Shown here one piece after another: positions 212-38,505 of a DNA stretch of 49,419 nucleotides; position 1 is the stretch's first letter, and each line of letters starts with the position of its first letter. The stretch covers positions 1 through 49,419 of the forward strand of contig JAUSJW010000112.1 of NCBI GenBank assembly GCA_030647105.1. The letters run 5' to 3'. Position numbers and translations under genes: made by a program. The notes beneath the pieces are model-generated. The model was given only the letters and a program-made list of their open reading frames with translations, was not told the DNA's origin and did not search any database. This DNA is from Nanobdellota archaeon. Its GTDB lineage: Archaea > Nanobdellota > Nanobdellia > Woesearchaeales > WJIZ01.

Positions 212-1105
212 CTAGTTTATCTCATGAATAACTTCGAAGGGCTTGGGGGACAAGGGAGATTGCGGACACCGGTTCATTCCAAAGTGGAAGATACTATAAG
301 CGAGGTTATCTCCAAGGCTTTCAAAAGCTTTTGTTTGCGAAGAGTAGAGGTTAATCCCTTCTATTTTCGCGCTAAACGCTCGCTCAGGAAGTGCTATTTC
401 ACGTTTAGTCAGATGTAACCCGTCATACCGTTCAGCAAGCAGAGTATCCAGTGTTATGTCACCGTCACCGAACCTTGTGTAGGTGTACGGCAAATCCTCA
501 TAGAAATAACCATGCGCGTTAGTATGGCTGGTAGTCGTTATAGCACGCACAAAAGATTGAGACACCAAGAGATGGTCAGCATGGGTGACTTTGTCGCCAA
601 AATAAGCGGGGCCAATAACAACCACAGGAGCGCCGTTTACTGAATCAATAATCTGAGTGATATCCCCTGTTATTGAGTTGATAAGGGAAGTGTTGTCTGA
701 ATCTGACCTTGTTTCATACTGATTATCCACATACCCCAGATTGATAGCGCGGGCTCCGAGCAGATTCGCGGCGTTGGCATTTTCTTGTTTGCGGGTTTCG
801 TTCGCTTCAGTGCTATTATTAAATCCTGACCGCACATCCCAGTTTGTCAGGTAGTGCACGGTGGTCGGCGGCGCGGCGAAAAACGTGACGATGTATTTTG
901 GCCCGTCAAATGCGGAGATGATGCCACCGACAGATAACACCGCGTCATCAAAATGAGGCGATAACACGATAAGCGTAGTTTCTTGTACTTCGGGGGTTGC
1001 GGCCTCCTTTTGAGAATATTCGGGCATCCCCGCTCCTTGAGTAGCGCATCCGCCAAGCGCTAGAAGTAGTCCATTCCTCACGATTCTAGCTAACTTGTTA
1101 CCCAT
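212..1105 (-). CDS. PIG-L/LmbE-family N-acetylglucosaminyl deacetylase, probable lipoprotein
   Basis: 297-aa ORF with a lipobox-like N-terminus (LLLALGGC). It carries the PIG-L signature LSPHFDDAVLSVGG and a later HADH motif. Two TTATAAAC boxes (1129-1136, 1142-1149) sit about 25-40 nt upstream of ATG 1105. The gene looks more AT-rich than its neighbours. Confidence 0.75.
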   Translation of the reverse strand: MGNKLARIVRNGLLLALGGCATQGAGMPEYSQKEAATPEVQETTLIVLSPHFDDAVLSVGGIISAFDGPKYIVTFFAAPPTTVHYLTNWDVRSGFNNSTEANETRKQENANAANLLGARAINLGYVDNQYETRSDSDNTSLINSITGDITQIIDSVNGAPVVVIGPAYFGDKVTHADHLLVSQSFVRAITTTSHTNAHGYFYEDLPYTYTRFGDGDITLDTLLAERYDGLHLTKREIALPERAFSAKIEGINLYSSQTKAFESLGDNLAYSIFHFGMNRCPQSPLSPKPFEVIHEIN

Positions 1106-1201
1106 GTTGGTTAGGAGGGGACCATAGCTTATAAACGCGTGTTATAAACACCGCGGAATGGCCTCTTCTCGTGGAGTTTTGGCATCGCTCATTTTTTCAA
1201 T

Positions 1202-2491
1202 TCATATCCGTTTTACGATTTCATAGAGTATGCTTACCTGGCGTTCTACCGATTGCTCATCAGGATGGAATGTTCCATGAAGAGCGCCAGCATCGTTCCC
1301 TCCAGAAGTAAAGAAGTGCAGGATGCGCTCTGCGCCCGGAGGGTAAAGCGAAGGGTCAGCCCAGGGCAAAGAGATAGGCCCGGCCCACGCCGTTTCATCT
1401 CTAAACTTTGCAGCTTCCGGTTTGACCGTTAATCCGAGCGCTGCTGCGGATTCGCGCGCAATCCTCACAAGGCCGCTGTCGTTGACAACAGGAGGCGCTT
1501 CAAGCTCAATGGTGGCGTCATGCGTTTCCATGAACTTGTGAAACATTCCTAACGCATATTCTCCAACAATGCGGCTGATGCCTGTCACGGTAGCATGCTC
1601 TGCCAAGCTATTTAATTCGCAAGGGGAGGTTTCAACCCTGCTCGCTTCGACGTGCCCATAGCTTCCGTCCGGCAGCCACGCGAACATTCTTTTGAGGAGC
1701 ATCAAATCATTACGGAAGTCAAGTTCAGCATTCAGGGGATTTTTTCCCTGCCAAGGGAGCGCTGCGTGCGCCGAAACGCCCTCACTCTTGTACGTAAACC
1801 GGTATGCCGCCGCCGTTCCAAACCCTTCGCTGATGCGCGCTTCTCCGTCTTTAAGGGACGTGTCGATATGGCACGACACAATGGCTGGAGCGTCATGATA
1901 AATCCCCTTTGCTCGCAAATATTGCCCGCCTCCGAACCCCTTCGGATGAACATACCCATCGTGCGCGTTGCCAGGGCCTTCCTCGGCGGGCTGGAAGATG
2001 AAGCCGACATCTTCGATTCCATTTTCCTTCAGGCGCCGAGCGAGTGTGAGCATGCTCGCCATGTTCACCGCATGCCCGCAATGATGGCCATAGAAACCAC
2101 TGCCTAGCGAGATAGCGTCGAGGTCGCAGCGGAGGTAGACTTTCGGAGAGTCTTTTCCAGCCATAACCAGTTCTGTTTCATGTGGTTTTTGCCCTGAGCG
2201 CGCGTCAAGCCGGAATCCAAGAGACAGCATCGCGTCTCCGATAAAACTTGCAGTGCCATACTCTCTATAAGAGGGTTCAGCGAGCCTTTGCAGAACTTCA
2301 ACGATATTCTGCGGGTGAACGGGCATCGCGTCTGAAAGCTCTTTCCGCCACGGTTCTTGGGTGGAGACGCGTTCACGTTGCACCTCGGCCCACAACTCAT
2401 GCTTCTCTTCAACTGCAGTCGTATAGGGAAACGAATACTGAATCGCGAATACGCGACTCGCGTGGACGGGTGCGGGATGTTCCTTGTTCAT
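1202..2491 (-). CDS. M20-family amidohydrolase/peptidase (aminoacylase/hippurate-hydrolase type)
   Basis: Motifs HCGHAVN and FIFQPAEEG are typical of M20D enzymes. The ORF-track start at 2497 is GTG; the first ATG is at 2491 (MNKEHPAP). Confidence 0.8.
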   Translation of the reverse strand: MNKEHPAPVHASRVFAIQYSFPYTTAVEEKHELWAEVQRERVSTQEPWRKELSDAMPVHPQNIVEVLQRLAEPSYREYGTASFIGDAMLSLGFRLDARSGQKPHETELVMAGKDSPKVYLRCDLDAISLGSGFYGHHCGHAVNMASMLTLARRLKENGIEDVGFIFQPAEEGPGNAHDGYVHPKGFGGGQYLRAKGIYHDAPAIVSCHIDTSLKDGEARISEGFGTAAAYRFTYKSEGVSAHAALPWQGKNPLNAELDFRNDLMLLKRMFAWLPDGSYGHVEASRVETSPCELNSLAEHATVTGISRIVGEYALGMFHKFMETHDATIELEAPPVVNDSGLVRIARESAAALGLTVKPEAAKFRDETAWAGPISLPWADPSLYPPGAERILHFFTSGGNDAGALHGTFHPDEQSVERQVSILYEIVKRI

Positions 2492-2528
2492 TCTCACTAG
2501 GTAGTAAACGAGAACCTAAGAATCTTTA

Positions 2529-2652
2529 TAGTCACAAAAGTGATTACAAAAGAAACCTTTTTATATCTCCCTTTCCTTTTTAGATAGGTAAACTCGATTC
2601 GATACTAAAAGAGTAGTCACAAAAGTGATTATAAAAGAAACCCTTTTATATC
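2529..2652 (+). promoter_or_regulatory. Tandem duplication of a 39-nt module (palindrome TCAC-N4-GTGA plus BRE/TATA box); the distal copy is 2529-2567 and the proximal copy is 2614-2652
   Basis: TAGTCACAAAAGTGATTACAAAAGAAACCTTTTTATATC vs TAGTCACAAAAGTGATTATAAAAGAAACCCTTTTATATC. The proximal TATA is centred about 26 nt upstream of ATG 2674. Palindromes are at 2532-2543 and 2617-2628. Confidence 0.7.
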
Positions 2653-2673
2653 CGCGAGCTATTTGAGCCTGCA

Positions 2674-3429
2674 ATGGACACCTCCATCCTTGAAGACCTC
2701 GGCCTCACAGGCGCGGAAATCAAGGTCTTCCTCGCGCTTTTAGAGCTGGGTTCGACGAACGCCGGAAGCGTAGTCGAGAAATCAGGCCTGCAGAACGCCG
2801 TTGTGCACCGCGCCTTCCACTCGCTCGCCGAAAAGGGCCTGGTGAGCTCGATTCTGGAGGGGAAAATCAGGCGCTACAGCGCCGCGAATCCCTCCCACCT
2901 TCTTGAGTTTGTCGACGAGAAAAAATCGCGGCTTCAGACCTTGCTCCCGGAATTGGAACTCAAGCGAAAAATGGCGAAAACAGCCCCCCAAGCCACGCTG
3001 TTCCAGGGCGTTCGCGGCACCAAGGAACTCTTGTACAGCCTGCTTGAGACAGGGGGAAAAGAATATGCCTCGTATGGCGGCCCCATACAATCAAATGAGG
3101 CGCTAGGCGAATATTTCTGGGAATCGTTCCATAATCGAAGAATCAAGAAAGGAGTAACAGCGAAACTGCTCTTCCACACTTCATTGAATTCTTGGGGGGT
3201 CCAGCTGAGCAAGAAAAAGAAAACCCAGGTCCGCCTCACTTCTCAAGCGCTGGAAGGCCTCACGGAAACGATTATTTGCGGCAATCGGGTCGGGATTGTT
3301 CTTTGGATGGAAAAGCCGTATGGATTTCTCATGGAAGATAAGGCAGTCGCGGACTCGTATCGCAAATTCTTCGATGTGCTCTGGAATTCAGCGCCCGAGA
3401 CGCGGTCCTTGAAGGAGGAAAAATGGTAA
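2674..3429 (+). CDS. TrmB-family transcriptional regulator
   Basis: The N-terminal winged HTH (LGLTGAEIKVFLALLELGSTNAGSVVEKSGLQNAVVHRAFHSLAEKGLV) followed by a coiled linker and C-terminal domain is the typical TrmB layout. Confidence 0.8.
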   Translation: MDTSILEDLGLTGAEIKVFLALLELGSTNAGSVVEKSGLQNAVVHRAFHSLAEKGLVSSILEGKIRRYSAANPSHLLEFVDEKKSRLQTLLPELELKRKMAKTAPQATLFQGVRGTKELLYSLLETGGKEYASYGGPIQSNEALGEYFWESFHNRRIKKGVTAKLLFHTSLNSWGVQLSKKKKTQVRLTSQALEGLTETIICGNRVGIVLWMEKPYGFLMEDKAVADSYRKFFDVLWNSAPETRSLKEEKW

Positions 3430-5075
3430 GGAAGAATGTAGTTAAGAGGCGCTCTCGTATGGGCAATGTCCGCGCGCAGGTGAGCGCCTTCCTTATCATC
3501 TCGATTCTGGCCGCAGCCATCATCGCCGGAGCGTACCTCCTCCGTGACTCCTCGTCTACAAACCAAGGCGAAACAGTTAGCGACACAGCCCTCTCTGAAC
3601 AGTTTGAGCGCCTGCCCATTCGCAACGCCATCGAAGCATGCGTCGATAAAACCGCGATGGACGGCATCGCGCTCCTAGGGGCGCAAGGCGGATACCTCCA
3701 GCTTGAGCCGATTTTGAGCGCTTATCAGACCGCGTATTGGTATCTCGACCAGGTCAATGTCCAGCCGACTCTTGAAGAGATGCGGCTCAGGCTAGAATCG
3801 TATCTGAACACACATCTTCCTTCCTGCGTCGATTTCAGCTCGTTCAGGGCGCAGGGATTTGGCATCGTCTCCGGCGCGGTTCAGAGCGCGGTCTCGTTCA
3901 ACAAGGAAGATGTCACCGTGGGCATTGTCTATCCTGTCCAGGTGGAAAACAATGTTCAACTGAGCCGCGAGGAGCGCTTCACCTCGACGCTCGACGTGCG
4001 CTTCAGAAGGATATTCGAAGCCGCCTCGACGCTGGTCAACATTCAGCTTGATCCTCGCTTTGACTTCACGCGGCCGCTCGCCCTGGCTCCACTCGGTAAA
4101 TTCCAGGTGGATGTGCGTCCCGAAACTGACACGCTAGTCTATACCTTAACAGACCCCCAACCGACAAGATGGGGGACCCATATGCAAATGCGCTTTGCCA
4201 GTCGATTTCAGAAATCTGAACTCGACAGGAGCCTGCGGCTCCACCCGGGAAGCAATACCCAGCAGTTGTTTTTCCCCCTCACGCTCTATTCTGTTGACCG
4301 GCTCGCGGAATTACACCTCTTGCCTGGAACGACGGTCTCCCTCAATTCAGGGCCCGTGCAAACACTGACCGTCGAACGGCAAGACCTCACAGAGATTACC
4401 AGACCCAATACTCCCTTCATCGAGCACGCCGACGATTCTGTCACGTATGGCGACCTCACCTGGCAGCTTACCTACCCACAATATAGTTTTGGTCCCGCGG
4501 GGACGCGTTTTAACCAGCCAGAGAATCTGCGTATCTATTGGGACGAGGAAAAGACGCCTCATGTTGGAAATATGGGCTTGTTATACCAGTCGGGCGATGT
4601 CCTGCGCCCGATTCCCTGCAAGGTGAACTATCAGGAGTACTATGTGGAGGCGCAAATTATCGGGTTTAGCGAATATGTCCCCATAGATTGCGGGGTGCTG
4701 GGGCCCAAAGCGGTGAGCGCAAAGGCTGAGAACAAGCCCAGTGTCCCTCTCTGTCTCGTTCTTTCTACCTTGGCTATAGTCTCAACGGTGCTGGATTTTA
4801 TCACTTTTGGTCTCATCGACCCTGATTTTCCGGCGAAGCTTGCCGGGTATCGCAGCGAAGAGAACTGCATCAACTTCGTCCCGGCTTGCGACCAGACAGT
4901 CAGTGTGTATGGAGACGAAAAAGACGGTGATGGTTCCTGCTCCCTCAAAGAAGGGGCTAACAATGTGAACGGGGGGAATGAAATCAAATTTTGCGCCAAG
5001 ATCAAGAAGTGTGACAGGATGAGCCGCCTCCTCTGCAAGAAATGCAGTATGGAATGCTCGACGAGTTACGTATGA
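3423..5075 (+). CDS. Envelope protein with candidate class III (prepilin-like) signal peptide, a second hydrophobic segment and a Cys-rich C-terminal tail
   Basis: The ATG overlaps the TrmB stop (ATGGTAA). A basic leader is followed by RA-QVSAFLIISILAAAIIAG. The C-terminus has a hydrophobic stretch PLCLVLSTLAIVSTVLDFITFGLI and then many Cys residues. I recognise no family. Confidence 0.55.
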   Translation: MVRKNVVKRRSRMGNVRAQVSAFLIISILAAAIIAGAYLLRDSSSTNQGETVSDTALSEQFERLPIRNAIEACVDKTAMDGIALLGAQGGYLQLEPILSAYQTAYWYLDQVNVQPTLEEMRLRLESYLNTHLPSCVDFSSFRAQGFGIVSGAVQSAVSFNKEDVTVGIVYPVQVENNVQLSREERFTSTLDVRFRRIFEAASTLVNIQLDPRFDFTRPLALAPLGKFQVDVRPETDTLVYTLTDPQPTRWGTHMQMRFASRFQKSELDRSLRLHPGSNTQQLFFPLTLYSVDRLAELHLLPGTTVSLNSGPVQTLTVERQDLTEITRPNTPFIEHADDSVTYGDLTWQLTYPQYSFGPAGTRFNQPENLRIYWDEEKTPHVGNMGLLYQSGDVLRPIPCKVNYQEYYVEAQIIGFSEYVPIDCGVLGPKAVSAKAENKPSVPLCLVLSTLAIVSTVLDFITFGLIDPDFPAKLAGYRSEENCINFVPACDQTVSVYGDEKDGDGSCSLKEGANNVNGGNEIKFCAKIKKCDRMSRLLCKKCSMECSTSYV

Positions 5076-6718
5076 AGACTGCAATCATGATTGGTTTAGG
5101 GGTGGTGCTCTTGGCGATAGCGCTGCTGAAGCCCTCAACCACTGGATTTGCCAGTGTCGACCCGGTAGGATGCTGTGCCACTGTCTGCCAGCAGACCCCC
5201 TCTTTGGGCTGTCCCGACGGGTTTTACGCGGGCAGGGACTGCAAGGAAGTGGCGGCGTGCGAAGTCGGATGCTGCATAGACCGCGAAGGGTATTGTTTGG
5301 GCAACTACTTGAGATCAAATTGCGCGAAGGCGGAAGGGGAGTTCATCTTGATTTCTGAATGTAAAGAGACCTTAGTCTGCCTCCAAGAAAAAGACGCCGC
5401 CTCTTTGCAAGGCCCCACAGGATACGTCGCTAAGTACCGCTCCTCTGACAAAGGCGCGGGTTTCACCTGGCCCAGCGCGGGGAAACGAGGGGACAGCGTC
5501 CTCATCGGGATGCAGGACTTCGGCACCGCGCAACAGGTCGAGGCAGAACTCTCCATAGGGGCCTACCAAGAACGATTTGCGCTCTATGACGACGGCTCGC
5601 ATGGGGATGGAGAGCCTCAAGACCAGCTCTGGGCGGCAGTCTGGCAGAGCGCAAGGGCGCCAGCACTGAGCGGGATATCGCCTGTGCAAATCAGCTTTCG
5701 AGTTGATGGCGAGCCCGGCAGTTCGGCGGTCTTTTTCCTCTCTTCAACTGATTGCGTTCCCTATCGCATGCCCTGGTCTGACCCGGGAGCGAGGAAAGAT
5801 ATTGTCCTTGTCGACGCTATCAACACTCCGCACTTCGCGGCGAGCGCTGACAGCCTGGTACGCCAGCTCGAAACAAGATACGGAACTGGCCTCGATCAGG
5901 CGAATGTCTATGCTCTGAAATTGCCAGCCACCACTTCAGACCGCGCTGAAATCAGGAGCGCTGTCTTGTCAGCCTGCCCCTTCTTTGACTCTGCGCAAGA
6001 TAGCGTCGTTGCGTTTTCGGCGATAGACGCGTGCGAGCAAGATGGGGAACTGGTCGTCGTGAATCCCCTTTTCGGGTTCAGGGAGGCGATAGCGCAGGAG
6101 TCCCTTTCAGACCTCCTCGCGCGGTTCTGCGACACCGCGGTCACGCAGTCGATGGTCGAGCAAGAGATTCAGGATTCACTTGAGGATATTCCCGTTCGGA
6201 TACTCGCTCCACTGCCGGGTTTGTTCACCTCCCAGCAGCTGCTCTTCTCGTTTATCGTTGACGAAGACAGTGATGCCTCTTTGTCTTATACAATCTATCT
6301 CGACACTTATGACCCCGCTATGGTACTGGCTCAGGGGAGCGCATCCGCCAACAGCCAAATTGATTCCGCGCTCACGGTCATCGATGGTACGCATGACCTC
6401 ATCTTAGAAGTGGAGGACTCCGAAGGCCGCAAAGGGTACGCGAGCGTGGAGGTCAACATGGATGAAGCGAATTTCATCGCGGATGCGCAATTCGAAGCAA
6501 CCTCGGCCACGCTCACCTTCACGCATCTCTCGGATTTTTCAGTCACCTACCAGATTCTTGGCGACGGAGAACTCATGAGTTCAGGCTCCGCGAACGTCGA
6601 AGCTCCAGAGTACGTCGCGCTCAATCTCGCGCAAGGAACGCACACGCTCCAGGTTGTCGCTGAGGACAGCGCGGGAAGAAAGGCGCTCACAATTCCGGAA
6701 GAGGTGGAGGTTCCATGA
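5072..6718 (+). CDS. Membrane-anchored/secreted Cys-rich protein with two Ig-like C-terminal repeats
   Basis: I place the start at ATG 5072, which overlaps the upstream stop (ATGA), giving MKTAIMIGLGVVLLAIALL. A Cys-rich block follows (GCCATVCQQ...CEVGCCIDREGYC). Two similar segments occur near the C-terminus (...GTHDLILEVEDSEGRK... and ...GTHTLQVVAEDSAGRK...). Confidence 0.55.
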   Translation: MKTAIMIGLGVVLLAIALLKPSTTGFASVDPVGCCATVCQQTPSLGCPDGFYAGRDCKEVAACEVGCCIDREGYCLGNYLRSNCAKAEGEFILISECKETLVCLQEKDAASLQGPTGYVAKYRSSDKGAGFTWPSAGKRGDSVLIGMQDFGTAQQVEAELSIGAYQERFALYDDGSHGDGEPQDQLWAAVWQSARAPALSGISPVQISFRVDGEPGSSAVFFLSSTDCVPYRMPWSDPGARKDIVLVDAINTPHFAASADSLVRQLETRYGTGLDQANVYALKLPATTSDRAEIRSAVLSACPFFDSAQDSVVAFSAIDACEQDGELVVVNPLFGFREAIAQESLSDLLARFCDTAVTQSMVEQEIQDSLEDIPVRILAPLPGLFTSQQLLFSFIVDEDSDASLSYTIYLDTYDPAMVLAQGSASANSQIDSALTVIDGTHDLILEVEDSEGRKGYASVEVNMDEANFIADAQFEATSATLTFTHLSDFSVTYQILGDGELMSSGSANVEAPEYVALNLAQGTHTLQVVAEDSAGRKALTIPEEVEVP

Positions 6719-8607: not shown

Positions 8608-9036
8608 ATGACTCTCAAAGAACTCTGCAAGAAGCTCGGGCTCGACTCTGGAAAGATAGAGACTGAGTTCGGCCTCTCTGAAGACGATTCGACCATCGGC
8701 GGAATCGCGCATAAGATCGCCGAAAAAACGGGGCGCTATGGCGAATTCATCGAGGGCTTCTTGAACCCCGACCACGCCTCTTACGCGGCGCTGTCAGAGG
8801 TCCACGTTCTCGACATGGAGAAAGTGAATGAGGTCTTCATCGCGCTCAACCTCATCAACAGGCAGTACTTGCTCGCCGATCTCAAAGGCACGGAAGAATC
8901 CTTCCAGCAGTTCATCAAGCTCAGTCTGGAGGAGTGGGAAGGCATCAAGCCGCTCCTCACGGCAATCATCGAGCAGGTCAAGAATTCCTGGAAAGAGTCC
9001 CTGCGCGGGAAAGAAGAGTTGGGGTACCTCGGGTGA
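8608..9036 (+). CDS. Hypothetical protein (142 aa)
   Basis: ORF with a leaderless-type promoter and a GTGA overlap with adk. No family recognised. Confidence 0.5.
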   Translation: MTLKELCKKLGLDSGKIETEFGLSEDDSTIGGIAHKIAEKTGRYGEFIEGFLNPDHASYAALSEVHVLDMEKVNEVFIALNLINRQYLLADLKGTEESFQQFIKLSLEEWEGIKPLLTAIIEQVKNSWKESLRGKEELGYLG

Positions 9037-30890: not shown

Positions 30891-33800
30891 CAAGCTCGTC
30901 CTGCACGGCTTCAAGTCGTTCGCGAAGTTCACGGAGATTCAGTTCGGCGACAAGTACAATTGTGTTATCGGGCCCAACGGTTCCGGGAAGAGCAACATCC
31001 TCGACGCGCTCACCTTCGTTCTGGGCAAGGCCGGCGCCAAGAGCATGCGCGCGGAAAAATCCTCCAACCTTATCTACAACGGCGGCAAGTCGAAGAAAGC
31101 CGGAGCGAAAGGCGAGGTCAGCATCTTCTTCGACAACAAGGACAAGACCTTCCCGACAGAGGAGCAGGAAGTGAAGGTCACAAGAATCATCCGCCAGAAC
31201 GGTCAGTCTATCTACAAAATCAACGACGAGGTCCGCACGCGCCAGCAGATTGTCGACCTCCTTCACATCGCGAGAATTGACCCCGACGGCTACAACCTTA
31301 TCCTTCAGGGAGACATCGTCAGGTTCTGCGAGATGTCAACGACAGAGCGCCGCCTCCTCATCGAGGAAATCGCGGGCATCTCGGTCTACGAGGAAAAGAA
31401 GCAGAAAGCCGTAGGCCAGCTCCAGAAGGTCGAGGAGCGCCTCAAGGAAGCGGAAATCATCCTCGCGGAAAGAAAAACCTACCTCAAAGAACTCCAAAAG
31501 GACCGCGACCAGGCCCTAAAATTCAAGGAACTCTCAGAGAACGTCAGAATATACAAAGCCTCTCTTATCAAGCTCCAGATGGACAAGCGCGAGGCGGAAG
31601 CCGGGGACCTGAAAAAGCGCGTCGACGAGCAGCTCGCGTTAGTCAAGGAAGCCGAAGAGCGCATCGCCAAGTTCCGGGAGCAGATTGCCAAGAAGAAGGG
31701 GGAAATCGAAGCCCTCACCAAGGAAGTCGAGGAGAAAGGCGAAACCGACCAGGTGAACCTCAACCGCGAAATCGAGGACATGAAAGTGGAGATGGCGAGA
31801 AGGACGAGCCGCCTCGAGCTCACCGAACAGGAAGTCAAGCGCGTCTCAGGGCGAGAAAAAGAAACCACCGGCACGTTAGAAGAACTCACAAAGAAAGTCG
31901 AGGATATCGGTGCCCAGAAAGCGGAGCTCGAGACGAGAAGAAAAGAGCGCCAGAAGGAGCGCGAGCTCATCGAGAAGAAAATCAAGGCCTTCCGGGAGAA
32001 GAACAACCTGGAGCAGGCCGGCGAGATTGAAAAGAACGTCGAGGAATCCGACAAGAAAATAGACGAGCTCGCGAAGGACATCAACCAGATGCGCGAGACT
32101 CAGCACAATCTCCTGAGGGAAAAGGACGCCGCGGACCGCGAGCTCGGCCTCATCGTGGACGCCATGGCGAAGGTCAGCCTCCTCGAGAAGGAGCACAAGC
32201 AGCAGCTCGATGGCATCAAGCAAAAGCGCGAGTCCTTCAAAGCCTCGGCGCTGGAGCTCAACAAGGTTCTCGACGAGGACTCGAAGCTCTCCGCGAAGAT
32301 TGGCGAATCGCGCCAGCTCCTCACGGAAAGCCAGGAGCAGCTAGCCAAGCTCCAGGCCCGTCAGGCGAGCATCAGGGAATTCTCACAAAGCGACCGCGCC
32401 ATCAAGGAAATTCTCGACAGAAAAACGAAGGGAGTCTATGGCACGGTTTCAGAGCTCGGCACCGTAGAGGCGAAGTACGCTCTCGCCCTGGAAGTCGCCG
32501 CGGGCATCAAAATCAAGAGTATCGTAGTCGATGACGAGAAACTCGCGCAGCAGCAAATCGAGCATCTCCGAAGGACGCAGTCCGGAATCGCGACTTTTGT
32601 CCCGCTCACGACCATTAGGTCCAAACATCTTTCAGATAGCGCGAAGAAGCTCATTACCGCGAAAGGATGCCTCGGCCCCGCGACGAAGTTCGTCAAGTTC
32701 GACCCGCAGTTCAGGCCCGTCTTCGAGTCCGTTTTCGGCGATGTCCTTGTCGTGGAAAGTCTAGATGTGGCGAGGCGCTTCGGCATCGGCGAGGCCAAGA
32801 TGGTCACGCTCGACGGGGATTTCGCCGATGTCTCCGGAACCATGAAAGGCGGCTACCACGCGAAGAAGCGCCAAGGCATGGGTTTCAAGGAGGCTCAGCT
32901 CGACAAGGAGCTCGAGGCCTTCACGGCCAGTGTCGCGGAAGCGGAAGGCGCCCTCTCTGTATTCCAGTCCAGGCGCGAGGAGCTCGAGAAGAAGATGACC
33001 GAGCTGCGCACCCGCAAGGCGGAGCTCGAGGGCGAAATCATCAGGGAAGAGAAGAGCCTCCACCTAGACGCAGGGGATGCCTCCCTCTCAAAATCCAAGG
33101 AGCAGGAAATTCAGGATCGCGCCAAGAACTTGGAGAAGAAAATCAACGAGCTTCAGGACTCCCTTCTGGAGAAGAATCGCGAGCTCGCGAAATACAAGAC
33201 TGAAAAGCAGATGCTCCGCGACCAGATATCTCATCTCAGGAGCCCGATGCTCATCGCGGAGCTCGCGGCCTACGAGGAAAAAGGCCGCCAGCTCGTCCAG
33301 GAAGTCACCCAGCTCGACGCCGAGCTCCGCAACGCCCAGGTGCAAGTCTCAGACCTCTTCGCCCCGGAGATGGAAAAGACCCGCTCCCAGCTCGTCCAGC
33401 TGAAGAAGGAGCAGCAAGGATTCGAGAAGGAGCAGCAGGAGCTTAAGAAAGACATCGACAAGCGCAAGGCCGTTCTCGCCAAGAAGGAGGAGGAAGCCCG
33501 CGCGTTCTACCAGAAGTTCAAGGAGCTCTTCAACCAGCGTTCCATCCTCGCGACAGACATTAACAAGCTGGATCTCGACATCGTCCGGCAGAACGAGAAA
33601 TCGAGGGAAGCCGAAATAAAAAACAACACGCTCTCCATCAAGAACGCTGAAATCCTGGCGGGTCTCGCGGGCCTCAGGGAGGAATTTTCCCAATACGAGG
33701 GCGTGACGCTCGACACCGAGAAGAGCGAAGAGCAGCTCAAGTACCAGCTTGTGCGCTTCGAGAAGATGAAAGAGGAGATTGGCAGCGTCAACATGCGCGC

Positions 33801-34368
33801 CCTGGAGATTTATGAGCAGATCGCGCAGGAGCACGCGAAGCTCGTCGAGAAGAAAGACACGCTCGCGAAAGAGAAAGCGGATGTCGAGGCGCTCATGGCC
33901 GAGATTGAGGGCCGCAAGAAGGAGCTCTTCATGAGGACCTTCGACAGCCTCAACCGGGAGTTCCAGAAGATTTTCTCGACTCTCTCAAAGAAAGGCCAGG
34001 CGGAATTGGAACTGGAAAACAAGGAGGACCCCTTCGCGGAAGGCGTCTGGATAAAAGTGCGCATCGCGGGGCAGAAATTCCTCGATATTCGTTCCCTCTC
34101 CGGTGGCGAGAAGACGATGACTGCCTTGGCCTTCATCTTCGCCATCCAGGAGCACGACCCCGCTTCTTTCTACATCCTCGACGAGGTCGACGCAGCCCTC
34201 GACAAGCACAACGCCGAGAAGCTCGCGAAGCTCATCCACGGCTATTCAGACCGCGCGCAGTACATCCTGATCTCCCATAATGACGGCGTCATCGGCGAGG
34301 CGCACAACCTCTACGGCATCTCGATGGATGAGGACGGCGTCTCGAAAGTTGTGAGCCTGAAGGTCTAA
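30877..34368 (+). CDS. smc: Structural maintenance of chromosomes ATPase
   Basis: Walker A GPNGSGKSN, long coiled coils, hinge, signature LSGGEKTMTALAF and Walker B FYILDEVDAALD. Confidence 0.95.
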   Translation: MTKINKLVLHGFKSFAKFTEIQFGDKYNCVIGPNGSGKSNILDALTFVLGKAGAKSMRAEKSSNLIYNGGKSKKAGAKGEVSIFFDNKDKTFPTEEQEVKVTRIIRQNGQSIYKINDEVRTRQQIVDLLHIARIDPDGYNLILQGDIVRFCEMSTTERRLLIEEIAGISVYEEKKQKAVGQLQKVEERLKEAEIILAERKTYLKELQKDRDQALKFKELSENVRIYKASLIKLQMDKREAEAGDLKKRVDEQLALVKEAEERIAKFREQIAKKKGEIEALTKEVEEKGETDQVNLNREIEDMKVEMARRTSRLELTEQEVKRVSGREKETTGTLEELTKKVEDIGAQKAELETRRKERQKERELIEKKIKAFREKNNLEQAGEIEKNVEESDKKIDELAKDINQMRETQHNLLREKDAADRELGLIVDAMAKVSLLEKEHKQQLDGIKQKRESFKASALELNKVLDEDSKLSAKIGESRQLLTESQEQLAKLQARQASIREFSQSDRAIKEILDRKTKGVYGTVSELGTVEAKYALALEVAAGIKIKSIVVDDEKLAQQQIEHLRRTQSGIATFVPLTTIRSKHLSDSAKKLITAKGCLGPATKFVKFDPQFRPVFESVFGDVLVVESLDVARRFGIGEAKMVTLDGDFADVSGTMKGGYHAKKRQGMGFKEAQLDKELEAFTASVAEAEGALSVFQSRREELEKKMTELRTRKAELEGEIIREEKSLHLDAGDASLSKSKEQEIQDRAKNLEKKINELQDSLLEKNRELAKYKTEKQMLRDQISHLRSPMLIAELAAYEEKGRQLVQEVTQLDAELRNAQVQVSDLFAPEMEKTRSQLVQLKKEQQGFEKEQQELKKDIDKRKAVLAKKEEEARAFYQKFKELFNQRSILATDINKLDLDIVRQNEKSREAEIKNNTLSIKNAEILAGLAGLREEFSQYEGVTLDTEKSEEQLKYQLVRFEKMKEEIGSVNMRALEIYEQIAQEHAKLVEKKDTLAKEKADVEALMAEIEGRKKELFMRTFDSLNREFQKIFSTLSKKGQAELELENKEDPFAEGVWIKVRIAGQKFLDIRSLSGGEKTMTALAFIFAIQEHDPASFYILDEVDAALDKHNAEKLAKLIHGYSDRAQYILISHNDGVIGEAHNLYGISMDEDGVSKVVSLKV

Positions 34369-34369
34369 A

Positions 34370-35641
34370 ATGAATATCGCGATTTTTTCCGACACGTATC
34401 TCCCTAAAATAGACGGCGTTGTCAAGTTCGTCACGACCGCCTCAGACTACTTGGTGGGGAAGGGTCATCGGGTCGCGATTTTCTGCCCGAAATATCCGGG
34501 GCACAAGGACGATATCTCAAACCACCTGCAGGTCTTTCGGTTTTCCTCATTCTCTCTTCCCAGTTATCGCGATGTCAAGGTCACGCTGATTGTTCCCAAG
34601 ACTGTTGAGCGTTTGCTTAGGGCGTTCCACCCGGATGTGGTGCACATCAATACGCCCGGACCCGTGGGGAAGGCGGGCGCGATAGCCGCGCACAAGCTGG
34701 GGATTCCGCTTATTGGAACCTATCACACTCTGGTTTCTGAGCAGATGAGCTACTTGACTCCGCGGCAGTTGTTAGGAATCAACCGGTTGATGGAGTGGAT
34801 GACCGGAACGAATTACAGCGCCGTAGAATTTCTCAAAAATGAAGGGAGCCTTCTCAAAAAATTAGGGTGGTGGATTTCCTGGATGGCGTACCGGCCGTGC
34901 GACCTTGTGCTAGCGCCCTCCCGCGCAATCTGCCGTCTGCTAAAAACTAAGTATCCCTCCGCGAATGTGCTGGCACATTCCAACGGCATTGACCTGAAAG
35001 GGTTCCCCCGGAAACGTCAGTATCCCACCGCCGGCCGCTTCCAGTTCATCTATGTCGGGCGCATCTCCTTTGAGAAGAGCGTAGACGTTGTTATTCAGGC
35101 GCTGGCGCAGGTTATCAAGAAGAAAGGGGTTCATCTCTATTTGGACATCGTGGGAGAAGGTCCAGCACGGCATTCCCTCGAGAGGATGGTGGCGAAGGAG
35201 GGTCTTGAGGCCTATGTCCGTTTCTTCGGGAGAATGAGTACAGAAGAGCTGAGCGCGAGGTACCGTTCGGCGGACGCGTTCATTACCGCTTCGGCGATGG
35301 AAACACAAGGGATTGTTCTCTTGGAGGCCATGGCTTCAGGCTTGCCTATAGTGGGCGTGCGAAAATACGCGATTCCTGACTTGGTCGAGGAGGGCGCGAA
35401 TGGGTTTTTGGCGGAGCCGTATGACTCAAATGCGCTCGCGAAGGCAATTTGGCGGCTTATTGAGAATAGGTCAAAAATAAAACAACTCGGAGACGCTTCG
35501 TATAGAAAAGTAAAAGGACATCGGTTAGAGCTCTGGATGGGCAAGCTTGAGCGCATCTACCGCGCTATGTCTTCTTCTTCTTCTTCTTCTTCTTCTTCTT
35601 CTTCTTCTTCTTCGGGCCGTATTCGCCAAATCGATAAGTGA
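34370..35641 (+). CDS. GT4-family (GT-B fold) glycosyltransferase with a C-terminal 15-Ser tail
   Basis: E-X7-E region ETQGIVLLEAMASGLPIV. Starts 1 nt after the smc stop. Ser401-Ser415 are encoded by the microsatellite. Confidence 0.8.
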   Translation: MNIAIFSDTYLPKIDGVVKFVTTASDYLVGKGHRVAIFCPKYPGHKDDISNHLQVFRFSSFSLPSYRDVKVTLIVPKTVERLLRAFHPDVVHINTPGPVGKAGAIAAHKLGIPLIGTYHTLVSEQMSYLTPRQLLGINRLMEWMTGTNYSAVEFLKNEGSLLKKLGWWISWMAYRPCDLVLAPSRAICRLLKTKYPSANVLAHSNGIDLKGFPRKRQYPTAGRFQFIYVGRISFEKSVDVVIQALAQVIKKKGVHLYLDIVGEGPARHSLERMVAKEGLEAYVRFFGRMSTEELSARYRSADAFITASAMETQGIVLLEAMASGLPIVGVRKYAIPDLVEEGANGFLAEPYDSNALAKAIWRLIENRSKIKQLGDASYRKVKGHRLELWMGKLERIYRAMSSSSSSSSSSSSSSSGRIRQIDK

Positions 35642-36329
35642 ATCGGTTTTTTCCGATTTCCCCTCTGAACAGGCGATAGAGAAATGCGCAAACATATTTC
35701 ACTCCTAGCTTGAGCCTTCCCTCTTTCTCGAATCTGCGGACGCTCACGTTCACGCTAAGAGGGAGCATCCGGTAACTCCCCGCTTTCCTGGAGCGTCGGG
35801 AGTAGTCAAAATCCTCGGCAAGCACCACTTCTCTGTCGAATCCGCCAATCCGCCGGTGGGCGCTCCGGGTTGAGGCCATGCAGCTGCCGACAGCAAGCGG
35901 GGAAACCCATTGGAACGCCCAAAGGAGGGCATTGAGCAGGGAATAGTAGGCCCAATCAATGGGATTTCTGCTGTCAGGCCAGATATACACGCCAGCGCAG
36001 GCGAGCTTCCTTTTGCCCATTTCTCGCGCGAACGCTTCCACGAAATCCGGCTTCACCAGCGTGTCGGCGTCAAAGAACAGCAGCCAGCGGCCGCTCGCCC
36101 GTTTCGCGCCCTCGTTCCGCGCCGCGGATACCGAGCGGAAGCGATGGATAAAAAAAGTGAATTGTTTGAACTTTTTCCTGAACGCTAGGGCAGCTTTCCG
36201 GGTGTTATCCGCACTATTACTATCGGAAACAATGACCTCGAAATCCTGGTAGGTTTGTCGCGCGAGGGCGTTGAGAAGGCGTGGAAGGTAATCTTCCTCA
36301 TTAAGGGTAATAATAATGATACTAATCAT
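35565..36329 (-). CDS. GT2-family glycosyltransferase with a C-terminal 14-Lys tail
   Basis: ISIIIITLNEEDYLPRLLNALARQTYQDFEVIVSDSNSADNT and a DAD motif region. ATG 36329 lies about 25 nt from the TATA (36351-58). The 3' end overlaps the GT4 gene by 77 nt. Confidence 0.8.
   Translation of the reverse strand: MISIIIITLNEEDYLPRLLNALARQTYQDFEVIVSDSNSADNTRKAALAFRKKFKQFTFFIHRFRSVSAARNEGAKRASGRWLLFFDADTLVKPDFVEAFAREMGKRKLACAGVYIWPDSRNPIDWAYYSLLNALLWAFQWVSPLAVGSCMASTRSAHRRIGGFDREVVLAEDFDYSRRSRKAGSYRMLPLSVNVSVRRFEKEGRLKLGVKYVCAFLYRLFRGEIGKNRFTYRFGEYGPKKKKKKKKKKKKKKT
35570..35613. repeat. Perfect trinucleotide microsatellite (CTT)n, 44 nt
   Basis: Uninterrupted period-3 run read directly. TCT codons on the plus strand give Ser; AAG codons on the minus strand give Lys. 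Confidence 0.97.
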
Positions 36330-36404
36330 ATCCCCCTCATCCACAATTCCTTATAAAAACCTTTCCGAAGCGCTTATATAGAACCGTCCTCCCTATTCCG
36401 CTCT

Positions 36405-36782
36405 ATGAATCGGGGCATGGCAAAAAAGAGAATCTTGATAATCGAGGACGAAAAGCCCATTCTGGAAGCGGAAGCGATGCTGCTCGAGTCCGACTACGAG
36501 GTCTTCAAGGCCTCAGACGGCAAGAGCGGCTTCGAACTCGCGAAGAAGCACAAGCCTGATCTTGTGGTGCTGGATCTCATGCTCCCCCACCGCGGCGGCT
36601 ATGACCTGTGCTTCAGTTTCCGTCAGGACCCTACGCTTAAGAAAGCGAAAATCCTGATGGTCACCGCACTCTCCCAGGATATCGACAAGGTCAAGGGGAA
36701 GATGGTGGGGATGGACGACTATCTCACCAAGCCCTACGAGCCGAGTCTCTTCCTCGAGAAAGTGCGCAAGCTGCTTTCCTAG
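36405..36782 (+). CDS. Stand-alone response regulator receiver domain (CheY-like)
   Basis: ILIIEDE, phospho-acceptor region DLVVLDLMLP, and DDYLTKP. Confidence 0.85.
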   Translation: MNRGMAKKRILIIEDEKPILEAEAMLLESDYEVFKASDGKSGFELAKKHKPDLVVLDLMLPHRGGYDLCFSFRQDPTLKKAKILMVTALSQDIDKVKGKMVGMDDYLTKPYEPSLFLEKVRKLLS

Positions 36783-36806
36783 CATGCTGCCCTGGTCGCG
36801 GTTCTG

Positions 36807-38288
36807 ATGGCCTGGCTCCCTCCCAGCATCGACCCTGCACTATTCTTGGACGTAATGAGCTTTCGCAGGCTCGCTTATTTTCTCGGAACTCCCGGCGGAG
36901 AGCTTCTCAAGCGCGCCGCGGAGATGGTGTTTTATCTGCTCATCGTCTGGATGATTCTCGCGGAGTACCGCCAGCGCAAGCGGCGCGATTACAAATATCT
37001 CGCGGCCGGCTTCTTCGCGCTGTTCGCGAGGAACGCCATCATGTCGCTTATTCTCTTCAGCGGCGTCTTCGGCACGGTGCCATTCACGCGCTTCTCTCTC
37101 GCGTTCCTCTTCCTCGACCAGGCATTAGAGAGCCTCGCCTTGCTCGCGATTGTGGGCGCGTTCCTTTTTCCAGTATTCAGGAAGTGCGCCCAGCGGTTCC
37201 AGGGCCTGGTTATGCTCTGGAGTGTTGGCGTGGGAATGGCGCACCTTGCAGTATACACGCTTGTCAAACAGTCTTTATGTTCCCAGCCGCTAGGGGAAGC
37301 GCTTGTCGACGCCATTCAAATCAGCGTTCTGCTTCTCCCCTTCTTCGTTATTCGGAAGGCATCGTATCAGCGGCCCCGCTTCGCCCGTTCGGTGCTGGTG
37401 GCGTTCGCCGTCTACATCGTATGGCCGCTCACGAACGTTATCAGCTATCTGCTCATTGGGTACGTCGACCCGCGCGTGCGTGTTATCGAGCATCCGCTCC
37501 CCTTTATCTCCATGTTCCTCTTGCTTCGCGCAGTCTACTTGGATATGGTGGACAAGGCAGGGCTTTACAGCAAACTCAGGCAGAGCGAAGCCACCATCCA
37601 GCATGAGAAGAAGCTCAATCAGCTGAAAGATAATTTTATCTCCATCGTCAGCCACGAGCTCCGCACTCCTTTGACGTCTATAAAGCTGTATCTCGCGTTG
37701 TTGCGGCAGGGGAAATTCGGAAAAATCCTGCCCAAACAGGAGAGCGCCATGAAGACGGTCTACGATGAGAGCACCCGTCTTTCTGACCTGATCACAGACC
37801 TCCTAACCCTAAAAAAGATGGAATCAGGAAAACTCGAACTGGAAAAAGTTCGGTTCTCCCTCCCTGAAATCATCGACGATCTCTATATTCATATCGCCCG
37901 CGAGAAAGGCATGAGCGTTGAGGCGAAATTGGCGCCGTGCGCCGTCCTAGGCGACAGGAACCGCCTCAAACAGGTCTTCATCAACCTCATGAACAACGCC
38001 ATCAAGTTCTCTGAGAAAGGAGGCACAATCACGTTGTCCTGCGGAAACAAAGGGAACCAATGCTTCTTCGCCGTCTCAGACACCGGCTCTGGAATCCCAA
38101 AAGAAGAGCTCCCCAAGATTTTCGATAAGTTCTACCAAGTCGAGGACGCGCTCACAAGAAAGAACCAGGGCATCGGCCTCGGCCTCTCCATCGTGAAGCA
38201 GATTGTCGAACTCCACGGAGGAACTGTCGATGTGAAATCTGAAGTGGGCAAGGGCTCGACGTTCACGGTTTGGATTCCTAAGAATTAA
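36807..38288 (+). CDS. Sensor histidine kinase with a multi-TM N-terminal domain
   Basis: H-box FISIVSHELRTPLTSI. N, G1 and G2 boxes (NLMNNAIKFS, DTGSGI, GIGLGLSIV). About 6-7 hydrophobic segments at the N-terminus. Confidence 0.85.
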   Translation: MAWLPPSIDPALFLDVMSFRRLAYFLGTPGGELLKRAAEMVFYLLIVWMILAEYRQRKRRDYKYLAAGFFALFARNAIMSLILFSGVFGTVPFTRFSLAFLFLDQALESLALLAIVGAFLFPVFRKCAQRFQGLVMLWSVGVGMAHLAVYTLVKQSLCSQPLGEALVDAIQISVLLLPFFVIRKASYQRPRFARSVLVAFAVYIVWPLTNVISYLLIGYVDPRVRVIEHPLPFISMFLLLRAVYLDMVDKAGLYSKLRQSEATIQHEKKLNQLKDNFISIVSHELRTPLTSIKLYLALLRQGKFGKILPKQESAMKTVYDESTRLSDLITDLLTLKKMESGKLELEKVRFSLPEIIDDLYIHIAREKGMSVEAKLAPCAVLGDRNRLKQVFINLMNNAIKFSEKGGTITLSCGNKGNQCFFAVSDTGSGIPKEELPKIFDKFYQVEDALTRKNQGIGLGLSIVKQIVELHGGTVDVKSEVGKGSTFTVWIPKN

Positions 38289-38291
38289 AGG

Positions 38292-38304
38292 ATGCGTCGG
38301 CCGG
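38292..38304. repeat. 13-nt second copy of the tRNA-Gly 3' end (ATGCGTCGGCCGG)
   Basis: Identical to 38389-38401. The 84-nt insert between the copies folds into a three-way junction. Confidence 0.8.
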
Positions 38305-38389
38305 CAGAGAACTCCAGAGCCCCCGATTCGCTTCATGCTCTGGCGTGCGGCTTTACGCCGCACTCCGTACTTAACTGCCGGAACAGTTA

Positions 38390-38505
38390 TGCGTCGGCCG
38401 GGATTCGAACCCGGATCAAAAGCTGTCTTTGCGTAAGCAAAGGCCCAGGAAGGCCGCTGCCTGACGTGTGGAAGGCTTCTATCCTAGCCGTTGGACTACC
38501 GACGC
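38390..38505 (-). tRNA. tRNA-Gly (anticodon TCC) with a 44-nt intron at the canonical 37/38 position
   Basis: Minus-strand cloverleaf: acceptor GCGTCGG/CCGACGC, D arm GTCC/GGAT, anticodon arm GAAGC-CTTCCA[intron]A-GCTTT, T arm CCGGG-TTCGAAT-CCCGG. The intron contains hairpins GGCC/GGCC and CTTTGC-TTAC-GCAAAG. The TATA (reverse complement of about 38530-38541) lies about 30 nt upstream. Confidence 0.8.

Follow-up and report, generated by a model that had tools for sequence, protein, structure and literature searches.

A length-variable (CTT)n microsatellite in the 3′ overlap between convergent GT4 and GT2 glycosyltransferase genes of a Woesearchaeota-like archaeon

When a single simple repeat is translated on both strands, as the tail of two different enzymes, is it something that the two genes use or something that they put up with? 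The question is raised by a stretch of 49,419 nucleotides from a Nanobdellota archaeon (assembly GCA_030647105.1, contig JAUSJW010000112.1; called the window here, meaning the whole stretch that was analysed). In this window, a GT4-family glycosyltransferase gene on the plus strand and a GT2-family glycosyltransferase gene on the minus strand converge and overlap at their 3′ ends, and a perfect (CTT)14 microsatellite lies inside the overlap. The explanation towards which we lean is that of a slippage-prone microsatellite that is tolerated, being in frame, free of stop codons, outside both protein folds and hydrophilic as read, with the long overlap and the paired tails as its by-products.

We first characterized the tract within the window. 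Tandem Repeats Finder (TRF) reported one array (positions 35570-35613, period 3, 14.7 copies, 100% matches and zero indels), in which the (CTT)14 proper occupies positions 35571-35612 and the local sequence is ATG-T(CTT)14-CGGGCC. A (CTT)5 probe allowing at most one mismatch gave 10 overlapping matches, all of them at the tract, against 0.02 expected from shuffles. The window has a GC content of 53%; its second-longest perfect repeat with a unit of 1 to 6 nt, over 49.4 kb, measures 10 nt, and the tract is more than four times as long as any other simple sequence repeat (SSR) in it. The initial annotation had described a perfect 44-nt period-3 run inside the overlap, read as Ser401-Ser415 of GT4 on the plus strand and as 14 lysines of GT2 on the minus strand. 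TRF and the shuffle comparison confirm the run itself, and the open reading frames (ORFs) and their codons confirm both readings.

Two alleles of the tract were found. Logan contig SRR13727527_215622 (L001, 4248 bp) aligned to window positions 32054-36325 without a mismatch, the only gap being one of 24 nt; it carries (CTT)6 where the window carries (CTT)14 and encodes 7 Ser in GT4 and 6 Lys in GT2. A neighbouring Logan contig from the same run (L140) was 100% identical to window positions 36298-38424, and together the two contigs cover 6.37 kb without a substitution and with one repeat difference of 8 units. At the protein level, the GT4 homologue P0001 (98% identity), which is encoded on L001, has 415 aa rather than 423 and is otherwise identical, with 7 Ser instead of 15. 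Because DNA that is otherwise the same carries 14 units in one case and 6 in the other, we conclude that the tract is actively unstable and changes length far faster than its flanks gain substitutions. The length variation anticipated by the initial annotation is thus seen between two assemblies that are otherwise the same. The locus shares with contingency loci a long, pure simple-sequence tract in a gene and a length that differs between near-identical genomes (14 versus 6 units, two alleles). It does not show their on/off switching by frameshift or promoter spacing: the unit is 3 nt, and the tract lies at 3′ ends and not in a promoter.

Could one of these lengths, or the junction itself, have been made by assembly or library PCR, with no biological length variation behind it? 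Assembly classically goes wrong at low-complexity repeats, both assemblies may come from one run, and many public matches to (CTT)12 in metagenome-assembled genomes (MAGs), among the matches listed in the genome scan described below, lie at contig ends. Against this, an independent assembler spans the junction with identical flanks, and the 44-nt tract fits well inside the length of a short read. Logan contigs are assembled at k = 31, and graph collapse at this k cannot yield a tract of 20 nt. Had a longer tract been collapsed, 31 nt or more of the repeat would be left, whereas the (CTT)6 allele has 20 nt, and a tract of 20 nt needs k-mers that touch both flanks, so this allele must exist in the reads. 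PCR stutter, moreover, typically changes a repeat by ±1 unit, not by −8. The neighbourhoods SMC-GT4 and GT2-histidine kinase recur in relatives, which, together with the independent assembly across the tract, argues against a chimeric join, an idea that was rejected. We therefore regard an artefact of either kind as very unlikely indeed.

No further alleles could be found, because a 20-mer from the left flank gave chance matches only: about one chance match is expected in 596 Gb, the three matches from the genome and metagenome collections (L002-L004) did not resemble the window, and there was no match in the viral collection. Exact-product look-ups of GT4 (423 aa) and GT2 (259 and 254 aa) returned no match, and a look-up of the response regulator returned SRR13727527 again and no other run, an accession for which a search of the literature gave no result. 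L001 and L140 break with an overlap of 28 nt at window positions 36298-36325, in the 5′ end of the GT2 gene. A break of this size (about k − 1) suggests a branch in the assembly graph, arising from a second variable site or from a repeated k-mer.

Next, we looked into how the two genes meet (Table 1). The C-terminus of GT4 reads ...LERIYRAM-S15-GRIRQIDK and that of GT2 reads ...FTYRFGEYGP-K14-T, each up to its stop codon. The last eight GT4 codons (GRIRQIDK) are the antisense of the conserved GT2 codons for TYRFGEYG, and the Thr and stop codons of GT2 are the antisense of the GT4 codons for Ala-Met-Ser; as judged from this arrangement, the tract appears to amount to a spacer separating two adjacent cores, one that happens to be translated both ways. 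CTT/AAG has no stop codon in any of the six frames (the readings are Leu, Phe, Ser, Lys, Arg and Glu), and any expansion of the repeat therefore lengthens both ORFs as well as their overlap, which measures 77 nt with (CTT)14, 53 nt in the (CTT)6 allele and 35 nt if the repeat is removed. As had been proposed, the 3-nt unit keeps both frames when the length changes, and both ORFs are intact in both alleles. The longest GT2 ORF (35565..36344, minus strand) has 259 aa from a GTG at 36344; translation probably begins instead at the ATG at 36329, for a protein of 254 aa, because all close homologues begin there with MISIII.

The lengths of convergent overlaps have been accounted for by random extension of 3′ ends as far as the next stop (Kingsford et al. 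2007, as recounted in PMC3887535). The two ORFs agree with such an origin: both run to the next stop, each stops inside its partner, and the residues past the cores are unconserved, the tails being absent from homologues. The locus is a microsatellite version of this accepted 3′-extension model (PMC3887535). It differs from ordinary convergent overlaps in that a stop-free microsatellite lengthens the overlap and in that the length is polymorphic, at 77 versus 53 nt.

Table 1. Window coordinates of the two genes, the tract and the hairpin beside it
Feature	Position	Strand	Description and basis
GT4-family glycosyltransferase gene	34370..35641	+	423 aa; fold runs to about Met400, with S15 and GRIRQIDK after it; ORF and Pfam
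GT2-family glycosyltransferase gene	35565..36329	-	254 aa from ATG; core ends in YRFGEYGP, followed by K14, T and stop; ORF and Pfam
Antiparallel overlap of both ORFs	35565..35641	both	77 nt; ORF coordinates
Perfect (CTT)14/(AAG)14 microsatellite	35570..35613	none	Homopyrimidine/homopurine; TRF, shuffles and comparison with SSRs of the window
Ser401-Ser415 codons of GT4	35570..35614	+	14 TCT and 1 TCG
14 consecutive Lys codons of GT2	35571..35612	-	All AAG
Small hairpin GAAUCGG-U6-CCGAUUU with T6 run	35640..35659	+	Starts in the GT4 stop codon, inside the GT2 coding sequence

We then located the ends of the two protein folds relative to the tract. In C-terminal alignments with 19 close homologues per gene, both conserved cores ended directly before the tract: most GT2 homologues end 0 to 6 residues past an FGxY motif, and the GT4 homologues stop a few residues past an LExxY helix, mostly 0 to 15 aa after the position of Tyr397. 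Counted from the anchor Tyr, the tail had a median length of 12 aa in 120 GT2 homologues, compared with 22 aa here, and of 11 aa in 119 GT4 homologues, compared with 26 aa here. The ends of the NCBIfam profiles fall on GT4 residues 399-400. The AlphaFold2 model of GT2 (259-aa numbering) had a mean predicted local distance difference test (pLDDT) score of 86.9, a last helix at residues 210-227 and scores below 50 at residues 236-253; that of GT4 had a mean pLDDT of 84.1, with a score of 95 for the block 391-400 and of 56, 49 and 53 for the blocks that follow. Alignments, profile ends and models thus agree with the suggestion of the initial annotation that the glycosyltransferase domains end upstream of the tract. 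The tails themselves did not extend to orthologues, as the closest homologues (about 50% identity) have no homopolymer tails, an outcome that the initial annotation had counted towards a neutral tract. Elsewhere in the GT4 model, residues 126-165 in the N-terminal half (window positions 34745-34864) had a pLDDT of about 50, and this segment may be a flexible or membrane-interacting insertion.

Net-positive tails were present in 84 of the 120 GT2 homologues, among them Lys-rich ends such as ...HYSKKKK and ...AAKHKKKKQSS and K/R-rich tails of 41 and 43 residues; long or Lys-rich extensions, some reaching about 43 residues, are found at the C-termini of homologues P0126, P0165, P0145, P0209 and P0235. 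These sequences suggest that a polybasic tail is recurrent in this small GT2 family and that such an end is at least harmless there. Net-positive tails were also found in 82 of the 119 GT4 homologues, and the bias towards positive charge may be generic. The GT2 helix 210-227 is the most amphipathic 18-mer of the protein (hydrophobic moment 0.56, net charge +5), and K14 follows this basic helix after about 17 residues, which is a property of the sequence only; a poly-Lys in this position would suit interfacial membrane binding. The C-terminus of K-Ras4B is a polybasic membrane-targeting tail beside a lipid anchor. The GT2 tail resembles it in carrying a Lys run at the very C-terminus, here about 17 residues past a basic amphipathic helix, and the resemblance is one of mechanism only: GT2 has no lipid-modification motif, its host is an archaeon and its membrane binding is hypothetical. 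As for translation, iterated AAG codons harm expression in Escherichia coli less than AAA codons do (PMC4363877), and cationic nascent chains slow ribosomes (PMC9207662).

To place the tract among others of its kind, we scanned one genome per species (596 Gb) for (CTT)12 and found at least 120 loci, which came from very diverse bacteria and some archaea and of which many lay at contig ends. The matches listed include 94 internal tracts, of which 65 are spanned by an ORF of 200 codons or more, the reading being Glu in 32, Ser in 20, Lys in 4, Phe in 4, Arg in 3 and Leu in 2. Only seven of them lie within 15 codons of the stop, and none of the matches listed, judged by crude stop-to-stop ORFs, has the geometry of two 3′ ends. 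The claim that long trinucleotide tracts are uncommon in prokaryotic coding DNA therefore holds for the single genome but not overall, given at least 120 loci that mostly read as poly-Glu or poly-Ser. A (CTT)n of at least 12 units is rare per genome and not unique; the unusual parts of the present locus are the poly-Lys reading and the reading of one tract at two 3′ ends. Hydrophilic readings prevail among the matches listed, with only 6 of the 65 comparable (CTT/AAG) tracts read as Leu or Phe, which fits a filter of tolerance. One archaeal tract, in the complete genome of Methanosarcina sp. Mfa9 (chromosome NZ_CP195119.1; L023 positions 2898-2975), is a (CTT)26 with no long ORF across it.

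Since they leave the reading frame intact, trinucleotide short tandem repeats (STRs) are the commonest class in the coding DNA of bacteria and archaea; STR density is lower in Archaea than in either of the other domains (PMC12699852). Variability is greater for SSR loci located at protein termini, which the authors credit to weaker selection against indels (PMC3315296). The present tract is of the same frame-keeping class and is likewise variable at a terminus. It stands apart from generic coding STRs in belonging to the STR-poorest domain (PMC12699852) and in its poly-Lys reading, which is rare (4 of the 65 tracts among the matches listed).

How would such a tract have arisen and persisted as a tolerated microsatellite? 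A few AAG Lys codons in the basic C-terminus typical of the GT2 family probably served as its seed, because GT2 homologues tend to have basic and sometimes Lys-rich tails. Its persistence would follow from four properties. First, each slip adds or removes 3 nt and shifts neither frame. Second, with CTT/AAG free of stops, each ORF continues past the repeat to the next stop; the overlap is unusually long because the stop-free repeat lets both ORFs read through. Third, the extra residues come after both complete catalytic folds, in segments predicted to be disordered. Fourth, the frames in use give hydrophilic Ser and Lys, and the tally of codon readings suggests that hydrophilic residues are better tolerated. 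Each slip alters the poly-Ser tail of GT4 and the poly-Lys tail of GT2 together. We judge this variation in tail length to be mostly tolerated and near neutral. Any phenotypic effect would most likely come through the GT2 poly-Lys, by attraction to anionic membrane lipids or by slower translation of the cationic tail.

Several observations weigh against a tolerated tract. The basic tails of the GT2 family and the position of the poly-Lys after an amphipathic helix hint at function over neutrality, and a perfect tract of 14 units with an 8-unit difference between alleles also fits selection for variability. In addition, the tails are predicted from the ORFs, and the alleles, only two in number, may come from one sample or from two, the organism being recorded solely in SRR13727527. 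Selection could instead keep the tract long and pure as an in-frame contingency locus, with cells of different tail lengths present in the population at all times. The poly-Lys would set how firmly the peripheral GT2 binds anionic archaeal lipids, or how well it is translated, and the poly-Ser of GT4 would co-vary; between them, the tails would bring diversity to the glycosylation of lipids or of the surface in an episymbiotic DPANN cell. We consider such adaptive tuning possible but doubtful, and the length-variation switch and the poly-Lys membrane-association tail suggested by the initial annotation are hypothetical. It would account for two very different alleles on identical flanks, for a tract without interruptions, for the recurrence of basic or Lys-rich C-termini in the GT2 family and for a poly-Lys about 17 residues past the most amphipathic helix, with its net charge of +5. 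It also has precedents, as in-frame repeat changes have been discussed as a source of activity variation in Helicobacter pylori futA, futB and β-(1,3)galT (PMC2806470) and translation is slowed by cationic nascent peptides (PMC9207662). However, with no homopolymer tails in the closest homologues (about 50% identity), the feature is young and lineage-specific. The pairing of GT4 with GT2 is not conserved, net-positive C-termini are common in the GT4 set too (82/119), and the poly-Ser has no obvious role. Going further, one could see here a bidirectional in-frame contingency locus, where a selected tract co-varies a membrane-affinity poly-Lys tail on GT2 with a poly-Ser tail on a lipid-type GT4 and thereby gives graded glycolipid or surface-glycan output in a clonal population; we think this unlikely.

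The tract might also act at the level of DNA or RNA, with the tails incidental. It is a perfect homopurine/homopyrimidine mirror repeat of the GAA/TTC type (44 nt, all pyrimidine on the plus strand), and as a 44-bp mirror repeat it could form an H-DNA triplex or a barrier between the converging units; alternatively, the antisense overlap could couple the two mRNAs. GAA/TTC repeats can form triplexes and impede polymerases, as is known from the Friedreich ataxia literature, but 14 units are short for a stable triplex. The (CTT)6 allele would lose most of the triplex potential and yet exists, and the GT4 and GT2 genes of relatives end without any tract of this kind. As to the transcripts, the small hairpin with a T6 run (Table 1) resembles an archaeal oligo-T terminator, its terminator role being putative. 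This oligo-T run, which possibly ends GT4 transcripts, lies past the tract and inside GT2, and the convergent transcripts should therefore overlap. Although the RNA fold contains the stem of the hairpin, shuffled sequences fold just as well as the region (z = 0.07), and a scan for bacterial-type terminators found one site only, no more than in shuffles, and did not pick the hairpin. On balance, we hold a DNA- or RNA-level role to be very unlikely. On the minus strand, the T-rich runs TTTTATTTTT and TTTTACTTTT lie inside the GT4 coding sequence at 35473-35482 and 35506-35515, 50 to 92 nt past the GT2 stop. Transcription of GT2 may terminate at these runs, in which case the convergent transcripts would overlap by well over 100 nt.

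A precedent for a role in transcription is the (GAA)n tract of Mycoplasma gallisepticum vlhA, whose repeat number controls transcription (PMC6258824). The motif is the same (GAA and AAG are one repeat, the complement of CTT), the host is a prokaryote and the number is variable, ranging from 6 to 12 or more. The vlhA tract is non-coding and lies about 40 nt upstream of the transcription start, whereas the present tract is coding both ways at 3′ ends.

Comparison with SSR contingency loci in bacterial glycosyltransferases (the tetranucleotide repeats of Haemophilus influenzae, PMC2651432; the Campylobacter phasome, PMC6321876; the poly-C tracts of the H. pylori fut and galT genes, PMC2806470) shows a common element, a hypermutable perfect repeat in a glycosyltransferase gene whose length varies on identical DNA. 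The bacterial loci have units of 1, 2, 4 or 5 nt, lie near the 5′ end or promoters and act on/off by frameshift. Here, in contrast, a 3-nt unit at the extreme 3′ end alters two genes of an archaeon at a time, without loss of either frame. Another likeness is offered by the heptad repeats of H. pylori FutA/FutB and β-(1,3)GalT (21-nt unit), where copy number varies in frame outside the catalytic core; these are proposed to modulate enzyme output rather than to switch it off (PMC2806470, citing Nilsson et al. 2006). The heptad unit has 7 residues, is structured and lies internally in the C-terminal region of one gene, as opposed to the Ser and Lys homopolymers here, which are predicted to be disordered and are encoded on both strands. 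Set against a "ruler", the locus does have a variable in-frame repeat outside the glycosyltransferase catalytic domain; it has no structured coiled-coil-like stem before a membrane anchor, as its homopolymers are extremely C-terminal and of low pLDDT.

To our knowledge, no SSR-based variation system has been described experimentally in Archaea. SSR variation is a cornerstone of bacterial host adaptation, and the locus is a concrete polymorphic case in the glycosyl-transfer genes of an uncultured Woesearchaeota-like archaeon. It shows a stop-free microsatellite that inflates a convergent overlap and writes two homopolymer tails at once. If tail length affects the membrane binding or expression of GT2, this would be a simple form of graded tuning rather than an on/off switch. 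If it has no effect, the locus would be a clean natural case of C-terminal homopolymer tolerance in both glycosyltransferase folds and a useful strain-level marker. Were the bidirectional contingency reading true, it would be the first archaeal system of phenotypic diversification by SSRs and the first case described of one tract serving two antiparallel genes.

We also evaluated what the two enzymes might do. Both passed the Pfam membership tests, GT4 for PF00534 (132.6 bits, cut-off 26.4) and PF13439 (106.6 bits, cut-off 28.5) and GT2 for PF00535 (108.9 bits, cut-off 23.3). The AlphaFold2 model of GT2 has a generic GT-A fold and matches WrtF, TarS, TarP and SpsA at E values of about 1e-13. 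More specific assignments were rejected: the best-scoring model for GT4, alpha-monoglucosyldiacylglycerol synthase (NF049988), gave 134 bits against a cut-off of 400, and that for GT2, the TIGR04283 arsenosugar biosynthesis glycosyltransferase, gave 103.4 bits against a cut-off of 182. A role of GT4 in lipid glycosylation is thus only a lead. The initial annotation had called the two enzymes functionally related and cell-surface directed; that both are glycosyltransferases is supported by Pfam, but neither reached a curated cut-off for a specific function and the convergent pairing is absent in the relatives inspected, which makes cell-surface glycosylation an assumption.

The nearest homologues of GT4 and GT2 have about 50% identity, and some are named "Candidatus Woesearchaeota". 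In the relatives inspected (L017 and L019), the convergent GT4/GT2 pairing was not found, and none of the relatives carried a tract at the 3′ end of either gene. The Woesearchaeota relative L017 has a syntenic SMC-(phosphatidylserine decarboxylase)-GT4 order with no GT2 after GT4; in L019, GT2 lies near a histidine kinase, as in the window, and its convergent neighbour is not a GT4 and is separated from it by a gap of 18 nt, with no overlap. A search for related loci seeded with GT4 returned distant bacterial and archaeal GT4 genes only (22-29% identity), which were of no use for synteny.

The rest of the window bears on the host. It also encodes a thermosome, a GatE-type subunit, SRP54/FtsY, AlaRS and SMC, and the thermosome is 70-75% identical to proteins of "Candidatus Woesearchaeota" MAGs, with 75% identity to that of OY970338.1; by these sequences, the host is a Woesearchaeota-like DPANN archaeon. 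Searches of the species-representative genomes with the flank 20-mer, GT4 or the thermosome found no close relative. Pfam gave no match at E ≤ 1e-5 for two consecutive long ORFs (3423-5075, 550 aa, and 5042-6718, 558 aa). A second "poly-Ser" ORF near position 8900 was set aside, as its run is non-repetitive and not an SSR, and its frames make it look like a shadow frame rather than a gene. The SMC stop lies one base from the GT4 start (window positions 34368-34370), and this junction looks operon-like. In L017 (positions 831-6194), the gene for phosphatidylserine decarboxylase lies between SMC and the GT4 orthologue, a neighbour that loosely links GT4 to membrane-lipid metabolism.

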